From NCBI GenBank assembly GCA_963732385.1, contig CAVSZB010000001.1:64001-128000 (forward strand): a stretch of 64,000 nucleotides of DNA, in the 5' to 3' direction. This document shows positions 48,634-56,175 of the stretch, in pieces. Each line of letters opens with the position of its first letter. The stretch's first letter is position 1. Origin of the DNA: an uncultured bacterium. GTDB taxonomy: Bacteria > Krumholzibacteriota > Krumholzibacteriia > LZORAL124-64-63. Made by a program: the position numbers and the translations under genes. The notes beneath the pieces are model-generated. The model had not been told where the DNA came from. It made no database searches and saw nothing but the letters and a program-made list of their open reading frames with translations.

Positions 48634-50541
48634 GTGAGTTATTGGCGTGCGAGAGGCCGCGCAGGGCGGCGTGATCGAGCCAGCTTCGATCGGGCGAGGG
48701 GAGTTGCAGACATCTTGAGGGCCTGCAATAGTTTACGCGCCAAGTCCACATTCCCTGGCCGCCGGCTGTTCGCGGTGGCCGCCCTTGTGCTCGGACTCGC
48801 CGGCCCCGGGACGGCCAGGGCCCTGCTGCACATCGACTTTGAGCAGGCCATCTTTGCGCCGGCCGGTCTGGCGGTGATGGATTTCTGCGTGCTGCGTGAG
48901 GATGGTTTGTACCACATCTTCTATCACGCCATCCCCGAGGAGCTGCTGGGTCCGCCGGCAGTGAAGACCATCTACCACGCCACGTCGCCGGATCTTGTGC
49001 ACTGGGACCAGTGCCTTCCCGCCATCGAGCGCGGGCCGGAGATCTGGGAGGGGCTGGGTGTCTGGGCGCCCGACGTGGTTTGGGACGCGCCGCGCGGACA
49101 ATGGCGGATGTTCTACACGGCGGCCGATTCCCTGTGGGTCCAGCGCCCCTGCGCCGCGTGGTCCGATGATCTCTATTCGTGGACGAAGGTCCCTGCGAAC
49201 CCCTTGTTCCTCCCGGACACGCTGCAGTACTACTGGTCTCCGACATTGGCGTGGAGTTCGTTCCGCGATCCTTTCCTGTTCTTCGCCGACGGCGTCTGGC
49301 AGATGCTCTCCACGGCCGGCCTGCGCGTGGGAGGATATCCCGGCACCAAACAAGGCATCGTGCACCGCGCGGTGTCCACCGACCTGGAAACATGGGCCGA
49401 CGCGGGGCCGTTCTGGGCCCACGACGGGGCGACTCTGGCCTGGCATGATCTCGAGAGCGCGCAGTATCTGGTGCGGGGGGGCTGGCATCACCTGTTCGTG
49501 ACCGAGCAGGATGTCGCCGGCGTCAGCCACATGGTCGCCGACACGGCAGGTGCCTGGACAATCGCGACCCGCACCCGGATCGACTACGGCTACGCGGCCG
49601 AGATCGACGAGTTCGATCCCGGTGTGGACATCTTTTCACGCTATGTCATAAGTCAGCACCTCGATACAGGGAAACTGTTCTATGTCGCGCGCTTCGACAC
49701 GCTGCGCTGGCTCGACGGCGGAAAGGTCCCCCAGGTCTGGAAGCCCCACCCCCTCAACCGGGATTTTGCGAATCTAACCGGACTCGCAACGTATGGGCAG
49801 CCGACCTGGGGCGACAACCCGGTAGAACGCGGCGAACCTTCGAGCGGCCTGGTAGGAAAAGGCTGGTTCGGCAGCCAGGAGTTCTATCAGGGCCCCGGGT
49901 CGGGCCGCGGCTCGCCGGGCTCTCGCCTGGGAGACGCGGTTACAGGAAGCTGTGACAGCCGTCCTTTCGTCATCGAGGGCGACTTCATCAAACTCCGGGT
50001 CGGCGGCGGGTACTATCCCGAGACCTGCTACGTCGCCCTCGTTGCCACCGACCCAGACACGATACTGGCCCGTGAGACCGGCACGGGCGTCGATTTCATG
50101 ACCGAGCGCATCTGGAACGTGCGCCCCTGGCGCGGGCGGTCTGCCTGCATCCGGATCGTCGACGAGGAGGTCGGCCCGTTCGGGCATATCAACGTGGACG
50201 AGATCGAAGAAATTCTCGACCCGGTGACGGACGTCGGGCAGGGCCAGGGGGGGCCGGCCACGGGCCTGACGCTTCACGCGGCCAGCCCCAATCCATTCAA
50301 CGCCAGCACGGCCATCCGCTTCACCCTGCACGAGCCTGGACCGGTCGAAATGGTCGTCTACAACACCCGCGGGCGCGTCGTGCGGCGCCTGCCTCCCCAG
50401 CAATTCGACGCGGGCGATCACGCGATCTCCTGGCGCGGCCAGGACGAGCGCGGGCGGCCGGTGAGCACCGGGGTCTACATCTATCGCTTGCGGGTCGCCT
50501 CCGGCGCCTGGACTGTTGGGCGTCTCACGCTCGTGAAATGA
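48634..50541 (+). CDS. Secreted GH32/43-like beta-propeller glycosidase with C-terminal FlgD-Ig tail (start uncertain)
   Basis: MDF...YHIFY, SPDLVHW, VWAPDV, FRDP, LES; tail PNPFN.ST.IRF...YNTRGR.VR...WRGQD..G.PVSTGVY.YRL...LTLVK. Confidence 0.8.
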   Translation: MSYWRARGRAGRRDRASFDRARGVADILRACNSLRAKSTFPGRRLFAVAALVLGLAGPGTARALLHIDFEQAIFAPAGLAVMDFCVLREDGLYHIFYHAIPEELLGPPAVKTIYHATSPDLVHWDQCLPAIERGPEIWEGLGVWAPDVVWDAPRGQWRMFYTAADSLWVQRPCAAWSDDLYSWTKVPANPLFLPDTLQYYWSPTLAWSSFRDPFLFFADGVWQMLSTAGLRVGGYPGTKQGIVHRAVSTDLETWADAGPFWAHDGATLAWHDLESAQYLVRGGWHHLFVTEQDVAGVSHMVADTAGAWTIATRTRIDYGYAAEIDEFDPGVDIFSRYVISQHLDTGKLFYVARFDTLRWLDGGKVPQVWKPHPLNRDFANLTGLATYGQPTWGDNPVERGEPSSGLVGKGWFGSQEFYQGPGSGRGSPGSRLGDAVTGSCDSRPFVIEGDFIKLRVGGGYYPETCYVALVATDPDTILARETGTGVDFMTERIWNVRPWRGRSACIRIVDEEVGPFGHINVDEIEEILDPVTDVGQGQGGPATGLTLHAASPNPFNASTAIRFTLHEPGPVEMVVYNTRGRVVRRLPPQQFDAGDHAISWRGQDERGRPVSTGVYIYRLRVASGAWTVGRLTLVK

Positions 50542-50582
50542 TATGGAACGGCTAGTCAAACGTTGATTAGTGCGCTCCTCGG

Positions 50583-50606
50583 GGGCCCCGGCGACAGCCG
50601 GGGCCC
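50583..50606 (-). terminator. Hairpin at the 3' end of the IS non-coding region
   Basis: GGGCCCCGGC-gaca-GCCGGGGCCC perfect 10-bp stem. Confidence 0.5.
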
Positions 50607-50625
50607 TTCTTACGCCTGGTTGTTG

Positions 50626-50786
50626 GGAGCAGGGACTGCAACGACGGTTGATCAGACTGATATCCGCGGGTTGGTTACCGCACACAATTCTGTCCGTCTC
50701 GGGGTGACCTCCGTCTAACACCGCGGGTCCAGCTCATGGCCTGCCGCATACTTCAAACGAGGATTCCCCTGACCGGTCCCTGCTCC
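50626..50786 (-). ncRNA. Putative bridge/seek RNA of the IS110/IS1111 element
   Basis: Closed by an 11-bp stem GGAGCAGGGAC/GTCCCTGCTCC; two repeated TGCGG...CCCGCGG units flanked by TGAAGTA (target-like) and ATATCAG (circle-junction match). Confidence 0.7.
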
Positions 50787-50796
50787 ACTCAGCGTC

Positions 50797-51912
50797 CTAG
50801 TGTTGCTTCGTGGCTGCGACCCACATCGCGGCCCACACGAATCCACTCAGTTCACGGGCCACCGCGACGGCGACCTTGTTGCGATGCTTCGTCTTCTCCA
50901 GGTGATGGAATCGCCTGCCGAGTCGATGCTGGGCCTTCACGGCGATCGCGACCATTTCAGGATCCTGACCCATCCGGCGGCGATCGAGGATCAAGGTCGA
51001 GCCTACCCTGTACTGGTAGTGCCAAGCGGCTTCGACTAGGATCCGTCTTAGGAATGTGTTGCCCGCCTTGGTGATCGAACCACGATGTTGTTGCTCGCCG
51101 CTGGAGTGCTCCTTTGACACCAACCCCGTGTACCCCATCAGCCGGTCCGGGTGACTGAAGCGACGGATGTCTCCGATCTCGGTGACCAACGTCATCGCCG
51201 TCAGGGTCTTGATGCCGCGGAAGCACTGCAGCGCCTCGACGGTCGCCCGCCAGGGCTCGCGACAGGACCACTGCTCGATCTCGGCGTCGAGCGACCGCTG
51301 CTGAGACTCGAGGTACTCCAGGTGGTCGAGGTCGTAGGCCAGGACCGTCTGCAGCGGGCCCGTCATCTCGCGGCGCAACGTGGCCAGCCAGGCGCGATGC
51401 TGCTTCGTCCAATTGCTTTTGGTCCCGGTGAAACGATGTCCGTGGGTAGCCAGCACCCGGACGATCCGATGCTTGCTGCGCACGATCTGACGCTGCAGCG
51501 ACAGTCGGCATCGCACGAGCTGGCGTACCGCCTCTTGCTCCTCATCTGGTATCGTCACCGCCCGCAGATGGCCGCTGCGATACATGCGCGCCAAGCGCAC
51601 GGCATCCAGGCGATCGGTCTTGCGGTGATCGCCCGGGCAGCGGGGGATCAGACTCGGGGCGATCACCTCGCACTGGAACCCATCGTGGTCCAGGGCCCGC
51701 TGCAGGACGTAGCCTGCACCCGAGGCCTCGTAGCATGCCCGCGGGGAGCCCTGCTTGGTCAAGCGGCGGAAGAGCCGGCGAACCGCGTTGAGGTCCCCTG
51801 GCAACCGGACAATCTCCGGGATGTCCTTGTCTCCAAAGAGGATCGCCGCGGTGATGGACTCCTGGTGAACATCCATGCCCACCCAAACGGTCGCTGTGCT
51901 ATCGTGTGTCAT
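50797..51912 (-). CDS. IS110-family DEDD recombinase/transposase
   Basis: VGMDVH, CYEASG, KTDRLDA, GIKTLTA, SSG...GSITKAGN..LR..LVEAAW, AVAREL. Confidence 0.95.
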   Translation of the reverse strand: MTHDSTATVWVGMDVHQESITAAILFGDKDIPEIVRLPGDLNAVRRLFRRLTKQGSPRACYEASGAGYVLQRALDHDGFQCEVIAPSLIPRCPGDHRKTDRLDAVRLARMYRSGHLRAVTIPDEEQEAVRQLVRCRLSLQRQIVRSKHRIVRVLATHGHRFTGTKSNWTKQHRAWLATLRREMTGPLQTVLAYDLDHLEYLESQQRSLDAEIEQWSCREPWRATVEALQCFRGIKTLTAMTLVTEIGDIRRFSHPDRLMGYTGLVSKEHSSGEQQHRGSITKAGNTFLRRILVEAAWHYQYRVGSTLILDRRRMGQDPEMVAIAVKAQHRLGRRFHHLEKTKHRNKVAVAVARELSGFVWAAMWVAATKQH

Positions 51913-52195
51913 GGCTGGGTCCTTTCGTGAGCGGGAGTTTCGGCTCCCTAGTGTCCCTGGTCCGTGCGGACTAACACACGATACCCGAGGGGCCCAGCCG
52001 TTCCATTATGTCTAGCCCTGGGGGATCGTCGCCACAGCCCCATCAGGGGTCTCGGATTGACGATTCCCGCCGCAGGTCGCACATCCCGTCCTTGGCTCCA
52101 CGCCGGCCATCCGCTACGTTTGTCTCCGCCCCCGGCGCTGCCGCTTCCCTTCGCGCCGCGCCGCGCCTGTACCGTCACCATCCAGGAGTATGCGC

Positions 52196-52690
52196 ATGGA
52201 CGCCTGTCCCTGCGGTTCCGACCGCGCCTACGCCGATTGCTGCGAGCCGTGTATCCTCGGCGCCCGCCCCGCCGCCACCGCCGAACAGCTCATGCGCTCA
52301 CGCTACACCGCCTATGTGAAGCACGAGATCCCCTACCTGGTCGCCACCAGTCACCCGGATCACCGGGACGATCAGGACGAGGCGGGGATCCGCGAGTGGT
52401 CCGAGGGCAGCGAGTGGCACGGCCTGGAAATCCTGAACGTGGAGCAGGGCGGACCGGACGACGACGAAGGCGCCGTCGAGTTCGCCGCGGAATACAGCCA
52501 CGACGGCGACCGCACCCGCCACCACGAGCGCGCCACCTTCGCGAAGCGGGACGGCCTCTGGTACCTGGTGAAGGGTGAGCGCGTCAAACTGAAGCCGTTC
52601 GTGCGCGAAGAGGCGAAAACCGGCCGCAATGACCCCTGCCCGTGCGGCAGCGGGAAGAAGTTCAAGAAGTGTTGCGGCGTGGCGGGATGA
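52196..52690 (+). CDS. YchJ-family protein with SEC-C motif
   Basis: CPCGS...[36 protein letters not shown]. Confidence 0.9.
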
Positions 52691-52709
52691 GCCGGCCCGG
52701 GCGCGACGC

Positions 52710-52898
52710 CTAATCCTCCCGCGCCCCGCCTCCCCCGGAGGCGAGCACCCACCCCATGAGCGCGCCGAGCCCGGCGCTCAGGAGCGGGCTCGAGGTGATG
52801 CCTCAGGTGCCGCCCGAGCAGCGGGCGGCCCACGACACCAGCCAGCCGATGCCGGCGCCGAGCAGCGGGGCCGCGAGGGTGATGATCCGCCTGCGCAT
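52710..52898 (-). CDS. DUF6132-like two-TM protein with in-frame TGA (candidate selenocysteine at residue 32)
   Basis: RBS GAAGGAGAGAGG; MRRRIITLAAPLLGAGIGWLVSWAARCSGGT-[TGA 52803-52805]-GITSSPLLSAGLGALMGWVLASGGGGARED-TAG. Confidence 0.72.
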
Positions 52899-53031: not shown

Positions 53032-54237
53032 ATGGACAGCCGCCGCACCGCCATCAAGCCCGCCTCGCGTACCGACAACATTTTGTACGCCGTGCGCGAC
53101 ATCGTCATGCTTGCCGACCAGGTCGCGAAGACGGGCAAGGAGATGCTGTACCTGAACATTGGCGACCCCAACAAGTTCGATTTCGTCACGCCGCCGCACA
53201 TGATCGAAGCGGTGCATCGGGCGATGCTGGCGAACGAGTGCGGCTACACGCCTTCTTCAGGGATCAGGGAGGCGCGGGAGGCGATCGAGCGGCGGGCCGC
53301 GAGTCAGGGCATCCGCAACATCCAGGACCTCTTCGTCACCCATGGCGCGAGCGAGGCGATCGAGGTCGCGCTGACCTCGCTGGCCGAGGAGGGCGACAAC
53401 GTCCTCACGCCGGCGCCCGGCTACCCTCTCTATACGGCGGTGTTGTCGAAACTGAAGGTGCGCGAGAATCCGTATTACCTCGACGAGGCGAACGGGTGGC
53501 AGCCCGACCCGGCCGACATCGCGTCCCGGATCGACGACCGCACCCGCGCCATCGTCCTGATCAATCCGAACAACCCCACCGGATCGGTGTGCAGCCGCGA
53601 AACGCTGCTCGGGGTGCTCAAGGTGGCGCGGGAGCGCGGCCTGGTGGTGTTCGCCGACGAGATCTACGACCGGCTGCTCTACGCGGGCGAGCAGCACATC
53701 TCGATCGCCTCGCTCGATTCGGACGCCCCGGTCATCACCTTCAACGGACTGTCGAAATCGTATGTGGCGCCCGGCTGGCGCATCGGCTGGGGCATCGTCA
53801 GCGGCGACAGGGCCGTGCTCGCGCCCTGGATGGAGGCGATGAACAAGATCCTGCGCGCCCGACTCTGCGCGAACGCCCCGATGCAGGCGGCGATCCGGCC
53901 GGCCCTCGAAGGCCCGCAGGATCATCTGCGGGAGGTGCTCGGCAAGCTCGAGCGCCGTGGCGACCTGACCTGTCGCATGCTCAACGCCATTCCCGGCGTC
54001 TCCTGCGTGAAGCCGCGCTCCGCGTTCTACGCCTTCCCGAAAATCGACATCCCGGGCGGCGATCTGCCTTTCGTGCAGGAGCTGCTCAAGGAGACCGGCG
54101 TGGTGGTCGTGCACGGCAGCGGCTTCGGTCAGGTGCCCGGCACGCAGCACTTCCGCGTCGTGTACCTGCCGCCGGAGGATGTGCTGACGAAGGCGTACGA
54201 GAAGATGGGGGCCTTCGTGCGGGCGTACCGGGGCTAG
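53032..54237 (+). CDS. Class I/II PLP-dependent aminotransferase (AlaA-like)
   Basis: LNIGDP; INPNNPTG; ADEIYD; NGLSKSY..PGWRIGW. Confidence 0.9.
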   Translation: MDSRRTAIKPASRTDNILYAVRDIVMLADQVAKTGKEMLYLNIGDPNKFDFVTPPHMIEAVHRAMLANECGYTPSSGIREAREAIERRAASQGIRNIQDLFVTHGASEAIEVALTSLAEEGDNVLTPAPGYPLYTAVLSKLKVRENPYYLDEANGWQPDPADIASRIDDRTRAIVLINPNNPTGSVCSRETLLGVLKVARERGLVVFADEIYDRLLYAGEQHISIASLDSDAPVITFNGLSKSYVAPGWRIGWGIVSGDRAVLAPWMEAMNKILRARLCANAPMQAAIRPALEGPQDHLREVLGKLERRGDLTCRMLNAIPGVSCVKPRSAFYAFPKIDIPGGDLPFVQELLKETGVVVVHGSGFGQVPGTQHFRVVYLPPEDVLTKAYEKMGAFVRAYRG

Positions 54238-54272
54238 GGTCGCCGCGCGCGCCGCGCGCCAGGCGCCGGGGA

Positions 54273-55049
54273 TCAGGCGGTCTCGCGCCAGCCGACGATC
54301 GACGCGAACCGCTCCGCCCGCTCCCCCTCGCGCCGCCAGCTCGGGAAGAGATCGTTGCGGCAGAGGGTGCAGACCCCGGCCACGGTGATGTGTGCGGGGG
54401 GGACCCCCGCGCGCCGGAGCTGGTCGACGTTGGCGGCCCAGAGATCGAACACGAAGCGGCCGTCGTCGCGGGCCGCGAAGAATCGGTCGGCGTGCGGCCC
54501 GATGCCCGACAGTGCCGTGGCCCGCACCTCGGCGCCGACCTCGTAGCAACACGGTCCCGCCGACGGGGCGATCGCGCAGACCAGGCGCGCCGGATCGGCG
54601 CCACCGTGCGCGACCATCGTTGCGATCAGCCGTCCGGTGATGCCCTGGACCGTGGAGCGCCACGAGGCGTGCGCCATGCCGGCCACCCTGGACACGGGGT
54701 CCGCCGCGAGCACGATCGGACAGTCGGCGCTGCGCCCGATCACCCCGAGTCCGTCCGCGTGCGTGACGAGACCGTCGGCCTCGCCGGCGAGACCGCCCCG
54801 CCCGGCGACCAGCACGGTGGCTCCGTGCACCTGCCGACACCACGCCGCGTCGCGCAGCCCGACGGTTGCGGCCAGAGTTGCGCAGGCCGTGGCGGTGGCG
54901 GGGGATGCGGCGTGTGGCCCGAAAATCGGTCCGCGGCGCGTCGTGACGGCGTGTGCCAGGCCGGCCAGCCCGGTCAGCGCGGGGAACTCCCCGACGCTCC
55001 AGCCGCCCGGCAGATCGCGCAACGGCAAGGTGTGGGGGAGCGATGTCAT
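54273..55049 (-). CDS. YfiH/PgeF (polyphenol oxidase/purine nucleoside phosphorylase-like) family protein
   Basis: QVHG; ADGLVT; SADCPI; HASWR; CCYEVG; CT.C...FPSWRR. Confidence 0.85.
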   Translation of the reverse strand: MTSLPHTLPLRDLPGGWSVGEFPALTGLAGLAHAVTTRRGPIFGPHAASPATATACATLAATVGLRDAAWCRQVHGATVLVAGRGGLAGEADGLVTHADGLGVIGRSADCPIVLAADPVSRVAGMAHASWRSTVQGITGRLIATMVAHGGADPARLVCAIAPSAGPCCYEVGAEVRATALSGIGPHADRFFAARDDGRFVFDLWAANVDQLRRAGVPPAHITVAGVCTLCRNDLFPSWRREGERAERFASIVGWRETA

Positions 55050-55263
55050 GCCGCCCGAGCCTCCAGACGGCGAACCATAGCGGCTGGCCGGGATCCGTGC
55101 CAGCGCTGCGGCGTCCGGAAACGTCGAGCCGGGTGTTGGCGATTGCGCATCTTCTCTCCCGGTGTTGAGATGGGCGCGCGGCACGATCACAAGGACGGCG
55201 CGACATCGCTCCGGCCAGTCACGCCGCGGCGCTGGACACGCCTGCCGGCGGGGAAGGGATCCC

Positions 55264-56175
55264 TTGACTCACGACCGCCCTGAAGGCCGACTCGATCGCG
55301 CGGGGCTGCTCTATCTAGGCATCGTCTACGTTGTCTGGGGCAGCACTTATTTGGCGATCCGGCTCGCGGTGCGCCCGGGCGCCGGCTTTCCCCCCTTCAC
55401 GCTCGGTGCGTTGCGCGTGCTCGTGGCGGCCGGCATCCTGTTCGCGGCGGCGGCGCTGACCCGTCAGCGCCTGTGGCCACGAAAGGCCGAGTTGCCGGTC
55501 CTGATCGGCGGCGGGCTGCTGCTCTGGCCGCTCGCCAACGGGCTGGTCGTGCTGGGCGAGACCCGCGCCGACTCCGGTTTTGCCGCGCTGCTCGTCGGTT
55601 CGATGCCGATCTGGGTGGCGATAATGGAAGCGCACCTCGACCGCCGGCTGCCGACCTTGAGGTTCATGGGGTCGCTGCTGATCGGGTTTGCCGGCGTGGC
55701 GCTGCTCGCCTGGCCGGTGCTGCGTTCTGGCGCGCGGGCCGACGTGCTGGCCGTCGTGGCGCTGCTGGCCGCTCCGATCACCTGGGGCGCCGGATCGCTC
55801 TGGCAGCGGCGGCGGCCGGTGGCGCTGGCGCCGCTGGCGTCGGCGGCGTGGCAGCAGTTCTTCGGCGGGCTCGGGTTCATCGTGGCCGTGCTGGTGCTGC
55901 GCGAACCGCGGCCGGCCCCCACGCCGGCCGCCTGGGGCGCCTGGGCCTACCTGACGCTGTTCGGCTCGGTGATCGCCTTCACTTCCTATGTGCAGACGCT
56001 GCGCCGTCTGCCGATGCGGATCGTCTCCACCTACGCCTACGTCAACCCGGTCGTGGCGGTGGGGCTCGGCTGGGTCGTCCTGCGGGAACAGGTGACCGGG
56101 TGGACGCTCGCCGGCGCCTCGCTGGTGCTGCTCGGTGTGGCGGGGGTGTTCCACGAGCGGGGGCGGCGGACCTGA
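55264..56175 (+). CDS. EamA/DMT-family transporter
   Basis: VYVVWGSTYLAIR; FGSVIAF; YAYVNPVVAV; about ten TMs. Confidence 0.88.
   Translation: MTHDRPEGRLDRAGLLYLGIVYVVWGSTYLAIRLAVRPGAGFPPFTLGALRVLVAAGILFAAAALTRQRLWPRKAELPVLIGGGLLLWPLANGLVVLGETRADSGFAALLVGSMPIWVAIMEAHLDRRLPTLRFMGSLLIGFAGVALLAWPVLRSGARADVLAVVALLAAPITWGAGSLWQRRRPVALAPLASAAWQQFFGGLGFIVAVLVLREPRPAPTPAAWGAWAYLTLFGSVIAFTSYVQTLRRLPMRIVSTYAYVNPVVAVGLGWVVLREQVTGWTLAGASLVLLGVAGVFHERGRRT

Follow-up and report, generated by a model that had tools for sequence, protein, structure and literature searches.

Positions 50626 to 50786 (minus strand) of the window, by which we mean the whole 64,000-nucleotide stretch of DNA that was analyzed, very probably encode the guide RNA of a presumably active insertion sequence of the IS110 family with IS1111-type organization. 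The predicted product is a long seekRNA, or bridge RNA, of 161 nt in which one internal loop (unit 1) would read the target and a second (unit 2) would read the donor. A preliminary description of this DNA, made from its letters, had proposed a two-loop guide RNA with the same assignment of the loops, and this main reading is supported by the comparisons with related elements that are reported here.

The insertion sequence and its transposase

The whole genome contains three copies of the element, 100% identical to each other, and its ends were set by comparing their flanks. The insertion sequence extends from about 50540 to 52012 on the minus strand, a length of approximately 1,474 bp when a single shared A, present at 50539 at the right junction and at 52013 at the left junction, is counted. 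Read in the orientation of the transposase, the left junction is flank-(T/C)-A-GACATAATGGAACGGCT and the right junction is AGCCGTTCCATATC-A-flank; the right end is ...CCATATC followed by the shared A, and the left end begins with GACATAATGG. The circle junction that had been predicted from the sequence, ATATC|AGAC, agrees with the ends derived from the three copies and their flanks. Donor and target overlap by this one A, and there is no target duplication, as judged from the flanks of the three copies and from an empty paralogous gene end in the same genome (ACGCTGGTGAAG-T-AATCCGGTTGC) that equals the joined flanks of one copy. The ends carry subterminal inverted repeats of 11 bp, ATGGAACGGCT on the left (51996 to 52006, minus strand) and AGCCGTTCCAT on the right (50543 to 50553, minus strand; read directly and complementary to 52006-51996), inset by 6 to 7 and 4 nt, respectively; subterminal repeats of 7 to 17 bp are characteristic of the IS1111 subgroup. 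The noncoding ends measure 100 nt on the left and 257 nt on the right, and the longer of the two lies 3' of the transposase gene, which is the arrangement expected of IS1111 elements.

The gene within the element (50797 to 51912, minus strand) is predicted to encode a 371-amino-acid transposase/recombinase of the IS110 family, with DEDD RuvC-like and Transposase_20 domains identified by Pfam (PF01548, E = 9.6e-20 and 71.4 bits against a cut-off of 29; PF02371, E = 1.1e-19 and 71 bits against a cut-off of 21.3). Among solved structures, the protein matched only the distant IS621 (8wt6; marginal similarity, E = 3.2e-07) and ISCro4 (9t56) recombinases, with which its E, D, D, and SG residues are aligned. 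Where IS1111-group transposases carry the motif GL-P----S(T)G, the sequence here is GLVSKEHSSG, in which S replaces P. On the basis of its domains, its insertion without duplication, and a promoter that is predicted to form at the circle junction (see below), the element is assigned to the IS110 family. By organization it is of the IS1111 type, an assignment to be read together with the limited similarity of the protein, which is only approximately 26% identical to the IS4321/IS5075 transposases, over residues 62 to 296 (about two-thirds of its length).

Structure and distribution of the guide RNA

The RNA structure, which was delimited by its fold, by covariance model R1, and by pair counts, begins 10 nt past the transposase stop codon. 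An 11-bp closing stem (P1), in which GGAGCAGGGAC (50786-50776) pairs with GTCCCTGCTCC (50636-50626) on the minus strand, encloses two parallel units. Every string that the preliminary description had quoted for this arrangement was found where it had been placed: TGAAGTA-TGCGG...CCCGCGG-TGTTAG in unit 1, with arms at 50755-50749 and 50720-50715, and ATTGTG-TGCGG...CCCGCGG-ATATCAG in unit 2, with ATATCAG at 50663-50657. Unit 1, the putative target-binding loop (50701 to 50769, minus strand), consists of stems GGGG/CCCC and CCUC/GAGG, an internal loop, and a distal stem UGCGG/CCGCG, as judged by RNAalifold and compensatory pairs. Unit 2, the putative donor-binding loop (50644 to 50697, minus strand), was parsed by RNAalifold and pair counts into a base stem ACGG/CCGU, an internal loop, a distal stem UGCGG/CCGCG, and a loop UAACCAA.

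Relatives were collected in several ways. A protein-based scan of species-representative genomes yielded 15 loci, and a search with a 25-nt unit 2 pattern yielded 50 metagenome loci, among which this 25-nt stretch is invariant because it served as the search pattern. A scan of 151 sampled genomes of the phylum with covariance model R1 detected the RNA in 40 of them (27 of 69 genera). The model also detected a second, divergent element in the same genome as the window (contig 6, approximately 53880-55410, with the RNA at C6:55128-55304 and a score of 49.3 bits). Run without filters, it also picked up the RNA downstream of transposase genes carried by plasmids of Cupriavidus, Sinorhizobium meliloti, and Pseudosulfitobacter. 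The transposases of these plasmid relatives are 38 to 44% identical, and their targets are not stop codons. Because it occurs on proteobacterial plasmids, the RNA scaffold is not limited to the source phylum. The plasmid loci are those of Cupriavidus sp. KK10 plasmid p1 (L114), S. meliloti BL225C pSINMEB01 (L116), and Pseudosulfitobacter plasmid P4 (L117).

The guide RNA structure is beyond chance. Folded at minimum free energy, the segment 50800-50560 forms the closing stem and both units at -105 kcal/mol, compared with -89.08 ± 4.9 kcal/mol for 200 shuffled sequences (z = -3.25), none of which folded at as low an energy. For comparative evidence, we used a covariance-model alignment of 59 distinct relatives, which leans towards structure because it was fitted to the model. 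In this alignment, 92.1% of pairing cells are paired, compared with 83.8 ± 0.4% after shuffling, and compensatory changes are present in 18 of 32 pairs, compared with 11.5 ± 1.5. The covariation score of 0.218 exceeds the shuffled value of 0.094, was reached by none of 500 shuffles, and falls to between 0.044 and 0.070 when the 3' partners are slid out of register. The closing stem shows compensatory changes in 10 of its 11 pairs. A MAFFT alignment misplaced the 5' strand of this stem, which was judged instead by the model-based alignment and by a plain helix search. In that search, 45 of 48 unique sequences had an unbroken closing helix of 9 bp or more, and parsing errors account for two of the three apparent failures.

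No Rfam family reached its gathering score in the interval 49500-52800 (E ≤ 1), where the only match was a subthreshold one to a terminator-like part of BjrC68 (18.2 versus 39 bits) on a hairpin at 50582-50607 that is discussed below. Across public metagenome contigs, the core of unit 2 (50641-50683) is the most conserved stretch. Many of these contigs match just this 40-nt core and diverge beyond it, and such matches point to a large, diverse family with a common core.

Several relatives are transposase-less derivatives that keep the ends and the whole or part of the guide RNA (L018:1407-1804, L080, L023/L024, and L027/L036), and a contig from DNA run X2 joins window position 50791 to 51986 and is likewise a transposase-less derivative. 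In L018, units 1 and 2 are fused, apparently via a deletion between the repeated UGCGG stems, and the 5' arm that remains, UUGCGAUA, still matches the flank TCGTAC.

Unit 1 varies with the target

The 5' arm of unit 1 carries a putative guide for the top strand of the target, UUGAAGUA (50749 to 50756, minus strand), which can pair with T-A-(C/T)TTCA. Unit 1 was parsed in 55 of 66 loci, the other 11 being cut, deleted, or too divergent, and the six 5'-arm bases beside the terminal UA were compared with flank positions +1 to +6. In a first set of 45 unique arm/flank pairs, 208 of 270 positions paired, compared with 176.2 ± 4.7 when the flanks were permuted. A second set of 35 unique pairs, obtained from other genomes via the covariance model, gave 181 of 210 compared with 110.5 ± 8.3. 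None of 10,000 permutations reached the observed count in either set, although these permutation counts overstate significance because related sequences are not independent. The second set omits L069 to L077 and L085, which are near-duplicates of the first set or have no clear right end, and the right ends of L093, L095, and L112 were corrected by hand from the sequence. The guide fits poorly in four of the 45 first-set pairs (L026, L057, L059, and L062) and in one of the 35 second-set pairs (L082). This covariation with the right flank in two separately collected sets argues that unit 1 is the target-binding loop.

More than 15 distinct guide/target classes were present among the relatives, which amounts to natural retargeting. 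Examples include CAAUAUUG with ATATTG, AGGUGUUG with ACACCT, AAUUCCUA with GGAATT, GUGAACUA with GTTCAC, and UUGCGGUA with CCGTAC; in the S. meliloti plasmid element, the guide AGGCUCUA is found with the target GAGCCT.

The 3' arm of unit 1 has the same sequence as the top strand to the left of the insertion point and contains a putative bottom-strand guide, GUGUUAG (50715 to 50721, minus strand), in which only the U-A and the preceding base, the complement of the host stop codon, match the flanks above chance; its final G equals the base that opens the left end. Two loci, L006 and L066, had mis-anchored left ends and were dropped; in the 34 unique pairs used, the arm agreed with positions -1 and -2, which belong to the host stop codon, in 65 of 68 comparisons; the permuted value was 59.3 ± 1.5, and 5 of 10,000 permutations reached the observed count. 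At positions -3 to -5, agreement was no better than chance (48 of 102 compared with 44.0; reached by 1,957 of 10,000 permutations). The arm follows the stop codon, in that arms with ..GUG plus ..UCAG had TGA-type flanks in three of four cases. The weak match of the left-target guide that had been remarked upon in the window is real and general: only positions -1 and -2 rise above chance, and the test that the preliminary description had suggested, covariation of the guides with target flanks, was positive for the top-strand guide in both sets and for the bottom-strand guide only at these two positions. In the RNA, the segment that matches the top strand is placed 5' of the one for the bottom strand, and both matches include the shared A, where they overlap.

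Another candidate was a handshake-type match between the first bases of the left end and the string UA-GAC/GAG that follows the bottom-strand guide. In the first set, GAC/GAG varies with the left end in most elements (L012 and L037 are exceptions), but the second set does not bear this out, as no base other than the G is constant there.

Unit 2 varies with the right end

The 3' arm of unit 2 contains a putative donor guide, AUAUCAG (50657 to 50663, minus strand), which repeats, in order, the five terminal bases of the right end, the shared A, and the base that opens the left end. Its identity to the segment of the predicted circle junction had been noticed beforehand, and both the string and the independently derived ends bear this out. 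In 27 of the 35 second-set elements, the right end has the same six bases as the arm up to and including the A; 25 of these have ATATCA and two (L089 and L091) have ATACTA. Arm and end differ in the remaining eight at one to three or more positions (in L093, for instance, the RNA has ACUA and the end ATCA), and several of these copies look decayed. Two plasmid relatives whose junctions were independently confirmed by their unit 1 guides add further variants: the S. meliloti element has AUAAGAG in the RNA and ...ATAAGA at its right end, and the Pseudosulfitobacter element has AUCGGAG and ...ATCGGA. Donor arm and right end thus change together in four states (ATATCA, ATACTA, ATAAGA, and ATCGGA), which argues that unit 2 is the donor-binding loop.

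The neighboring GTCTGAT (50657-50651) had been pointed out as the reverse complement of ATCAGAC. This complementarity is present in the window, but a role of GUCUGAU as a guide for the circle junction was rejected, since the segment does not change as the ends change. L089 retains UCUGAU despite its ATACTA right end, AGUGAC accompanies an ATATCA end in the second element of the same genome and in its relatives, and the plasmid relatives carry UAUGCC and UUUGAG instead. In the minimum-free-energy fold, moreover, its UCUG pairs with CAGA on the 5' side.

For the left end, our search came to the same outcome as the preliminary description, which had been unable to assign the right-donor guide unambiguously. 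Complementarity and identity were tried in several registers and in both senses, and none gave a segment of the RNA with a consistent match across the subgroups. The 5' side of unit 2 offers partial matches only, such as AUUGUG with CATAAT here and UAUCUU with GAGATA in L005, and none of their registers holds across subgroups. Another subgroup has AAAAUGGA, which repeats the left end. As for the hexamer that varies in the left end, the -10 box of the junction promoter accounts for it. In the second element of the same genome, the 5' loop side of unit 2 is almost absent.

A predicted junction promoter and a proposed mechanism

When the ends were joined in silico, a -35 box in the right end (TTGACT, 50554 to 50559, minus strand) and a -10 box in the left end (CATAAT, 52005 to 52010, minus strand) came to lie 17 nt apart across the circle junction, so that this promoter arises only with the ends joined. 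Of 29 distinct end pairs from relatives, 25 gave a junction promoter scoring at least 9 of 12, and no sigma-70-like promoter was found in the linear element. Two metatranscriptome runs contain contigs approximately 90% alike to the window over 50533-50763 and parts of the transposase gene; being contigs only, they allow neither transcript, ends, nor strand to be read and could reflect DNA carry-over.

By analogy with the work on ISEc11 and IS621, the element would excise as a circle, and its joined ends would form the promoter TTGACT-17-CATAAT, from which the transposase gene and then the approximately 161-nt RNA would be transcribed. The RNA might be processed to a long form (approximately 161 nt) and perhaps also to a short form (unit 1). 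As the comparison of relatives shows, the 5' arm of unit 1, UUGAAGUA, can pair with T-A-YTTCA on the top strand, and the ..UUAG of the 3' arm matches the top-strand complement of the stop codon (Y-T/C-A), so that pairing with the bottom strand would be possible. Recombinase subunits would bind each loop and bring the circle junction and the target together, and strands would be exchanged at the shared A without duplication.

Insertion at the ends of sorting-domain genes

The gene interrupted in the window (48634 to 50541, plus strand) encodes a 635-amino-acid protein with a GH32-like N-terminal domain and a C-terminal FlgD_ig/T9SS type A sorting domain (Pfam and TIGR04183; E = 5.8e-08 for TIGR04183 in its last 89 amino acids). 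Read across the junction, the gene takes its stop codon, TGA (50539-50541), from the element. We tested the 90 residues encoded up to the insertion point at 40 loci, comprising 42 translated loci minus L015 and L059 (stop codons) and L030 (a duplicate), plus the window's own tail. The sorting domain (TIGR04183, E ≤ 0.01) ends the host gene in 33 of these 40 loci, and 32 scored above the curated cut-off. The element is always oriented opposite to the host gene and inserted directly after the last sense codon, and the target consists of the last codons and the stop of sorting-domain genes (...L-V/L/M-K-stop). After insertion, the host stop codon (TAG, TAA, or TGA) is left at the left junction, and the terminal TCA of the element (CTA in ATACTA elements) provides the gene with a new stop at the same position.

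The terminal triplet of the right end was TCA or CTA, giving TGA or TAG on the host strand, in all sorting-domain-targeting relatives seen, and AGA or GGA in plasmid relatives with other targets. This triplet pattern fits selection that keeps the host reading frame closed. In the genome, the 8-mer recognized by the guides is present 164 times, compared with 190 occurrences of a control, and is therefore not enriched; 26 occurrences are at the ends of long open frames. Since the 8-mer is common and unenriched, guide pairing cannot by itself account for the location of all three copies at the ends of sorting-domain genes, and selection against disruptive insertions likely adds to the restriction to tails.

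Between the guide RNA and the right inverted repeat lies a GC-rich hairpin with a T-rich tail on the strand of the host gene (50582 to 50607, plus strand). The hairpin is conserved in relatives at 9 to 12 bp. Read in the transposase sense, at least four of the 8 nt that precede it are A in 34 of 37 relatives, and at least four T follow it in none of the 37. It looks like a terminator against transcription incoming from the interrupted host gene.

The guides of the second element in the same genome (relatives L099 to L110) point to another tail, ...SWGxVKxLYR plus stop. Eight long open frames of the genome end with ...SWGxVKxLYR, and two of these then meet the end of the second element. Pfam identified no family in any of seven such tails, which may be an undescribed C-terminal sorting signal.

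These features can tentatively be joined into one broader reading, which we consider possible but less probable than not. The lineage of the element would have become specialized in gene ends, using genes for secreted proteins as a multicopy safe harbor. Its guide would read the last two codons and the stop, its right-end triplet would be held to the complement of a stop codon, and its terminator would replace the host-gene terminator displaced by the insertion. With the stop restored and the terminator replaced, insertion would be translationally silent. Sister lineages would have been retargeted to the undescribed tail ...SWGxVKxLYR, and donor recognition would be one-sided, in that the RNA may read the right end only and the subterminal repeats may do the rest.

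Alternative explanations

Other readings of the structure differ in how much of it they allow to guide. One is that only unit 1 guides, like the short ISEc11 seekRNA, and that unit 2 is a scaffold for protein binding or processing; the protein would then recognize the ends via the subterminal inverted repeats, and the identity of AUAUCAG to the right end would be a by-product. According to the text of Siddiquee 2024 (PMC11187229), the short ISEc11 seekRNA, at 82 nt, is enough for transposition. The highly conserved core of unit 2 could also be a protein site, no left-end guide was found, and the second element of the same genome nearly lacks the 5' loop side of unit 2. Against this stands the covariation of the unit 2 arm with the right end in four states, two of them reached by multibase changes in distant plasmid elements, which is hard to account for without base pairing, and we regard a unit 2 without guiding function as improbable.

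A role in cis, in which the structure would serve the transposase mRNA in stability, attenuation, or antisense protection and would guide no DNA, is suggested by its position directly past the stop codon and beside a terminator-like hairpin. It is the loop arms and not the stems, however, that vary with the flanking host DNA, over more than 15 target classes, and a purely cis-regulatory element would have no reason to track the insertion site; we therefore hold this explanation to be very unlikely. Least credible of all is that the matches arose by chance or by copying of target sequence into the element, as remnants of nested insertions. Single matches are indeed short (6 to 8 nt), and the 8-mer is common in the genome, but the observed pairing was not reached in any permutation of either set, and the places of the matches in the structure are fixed. 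The two arms also differ, one being the complement of the target and the other a repeat of it, a combination that a copied target would not give, and the structural covariation of the 59 sequences likewise contradicts such an origin. The reading that we favor remains a two-loop guide RNA belonging to an IS1111-organized element.

Relation to known systems

Judged from its sequence, the element is an IS1111-type seekRNA/bridge RNA system of a known kind and not a new system. The text of Siddiquee 2024 (PMC11187229) places the IS1111-type seekRNA in the 3' noncoding region, gives long forms of 145 to 170 nt, and describes a top-strand match that lies 5' of, and overlaps with, the bottom-strand match; that of Durrant 2024 (PMC11208160) reports that 93% of IS1111 elements have a predicted bridge RNA in the right end. 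As in the ISEc11, ISPa11, ISKpn4, and ISPst6 elements described in the former text, the guide RNA here lies in a long noncoding region 3' of the transposase gene. Subterminal inverted repeats, a promoter only at the circle junction, natural retargeting, the top-then-bottom order of guides with overlapping target matches, and the size of the long form (161 nt here, compared with 145 to 170 nt) are also shared with the IS1111-type elements of that text (PMC11187229). The differences from them are that the target is the end of a coding sequence and not a REP sequence, an attC site, or a transposon inverted repeat; that the bottom-strand match is just 2 to 3 nt; and that the transposase has 371 amino acids rather than 330 to 350 (PMC11187229).

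With IS621, as described in the texts of PMC11208160 and PMC11208158, the element shares a single RNA with target- and donor-binding internal loops, a DEDD RuvC-like domain with a Tnp domain that carries the catalytic SG, and guides that cover the core common to donor and target. In IS621, however, it is the left end that encodes the RNA, which precedes the gene and has a reversed order of guides, whereas the RNA here is downstream. In the same texts, the IS621 core is a 2-nt CT identical in donor and target, whereas here it is a single A, and at position -1 the donor has C and most targets have T. The IS621 RNA is also described as reading both halves of the donor (PMC11208160; PMC11208158), and only the right-end half could be assigned here. 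ISPpu9 of Pseudomonas putida, as reported in PMC12288879, is likewise an IS110-family element with a small RNA gene (Ssr9) 3' of the transposase gene and with extra copies of the RNA gene that lack a transposase, but it targets REP sequences, unlike the element here. A literature search of full texts found no paper that ties IS110 or IS1111 elements to type IX secretion sorting domains or to this phylum.

Significance

The element adds nothing in principle to RNA-guided recombination. What it offers is a natural series in which one compact recombinase/RNA scaffold is combined with more than 15 guide/target pairs in an uncultured high-GC phylum and on proteobacterial plasmids. From this series it can be seen where in the guide a mismatch or a G-U pair is tolerated, and that a left half-site can be as small as a stop codon. 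One-sided donor recognition, if true, would be a mechanism unlike the four-guide IS621 system. For annotation, the element accounts for the approximately 1.5-kb insertions found directly after sorting-domain genes in these genomes. It is a clear case of a predicted RNA-guided mobile element whose repeated and harmless landing site is a conserved protein-coding motif, namely the end of the T9SS sorting domain.
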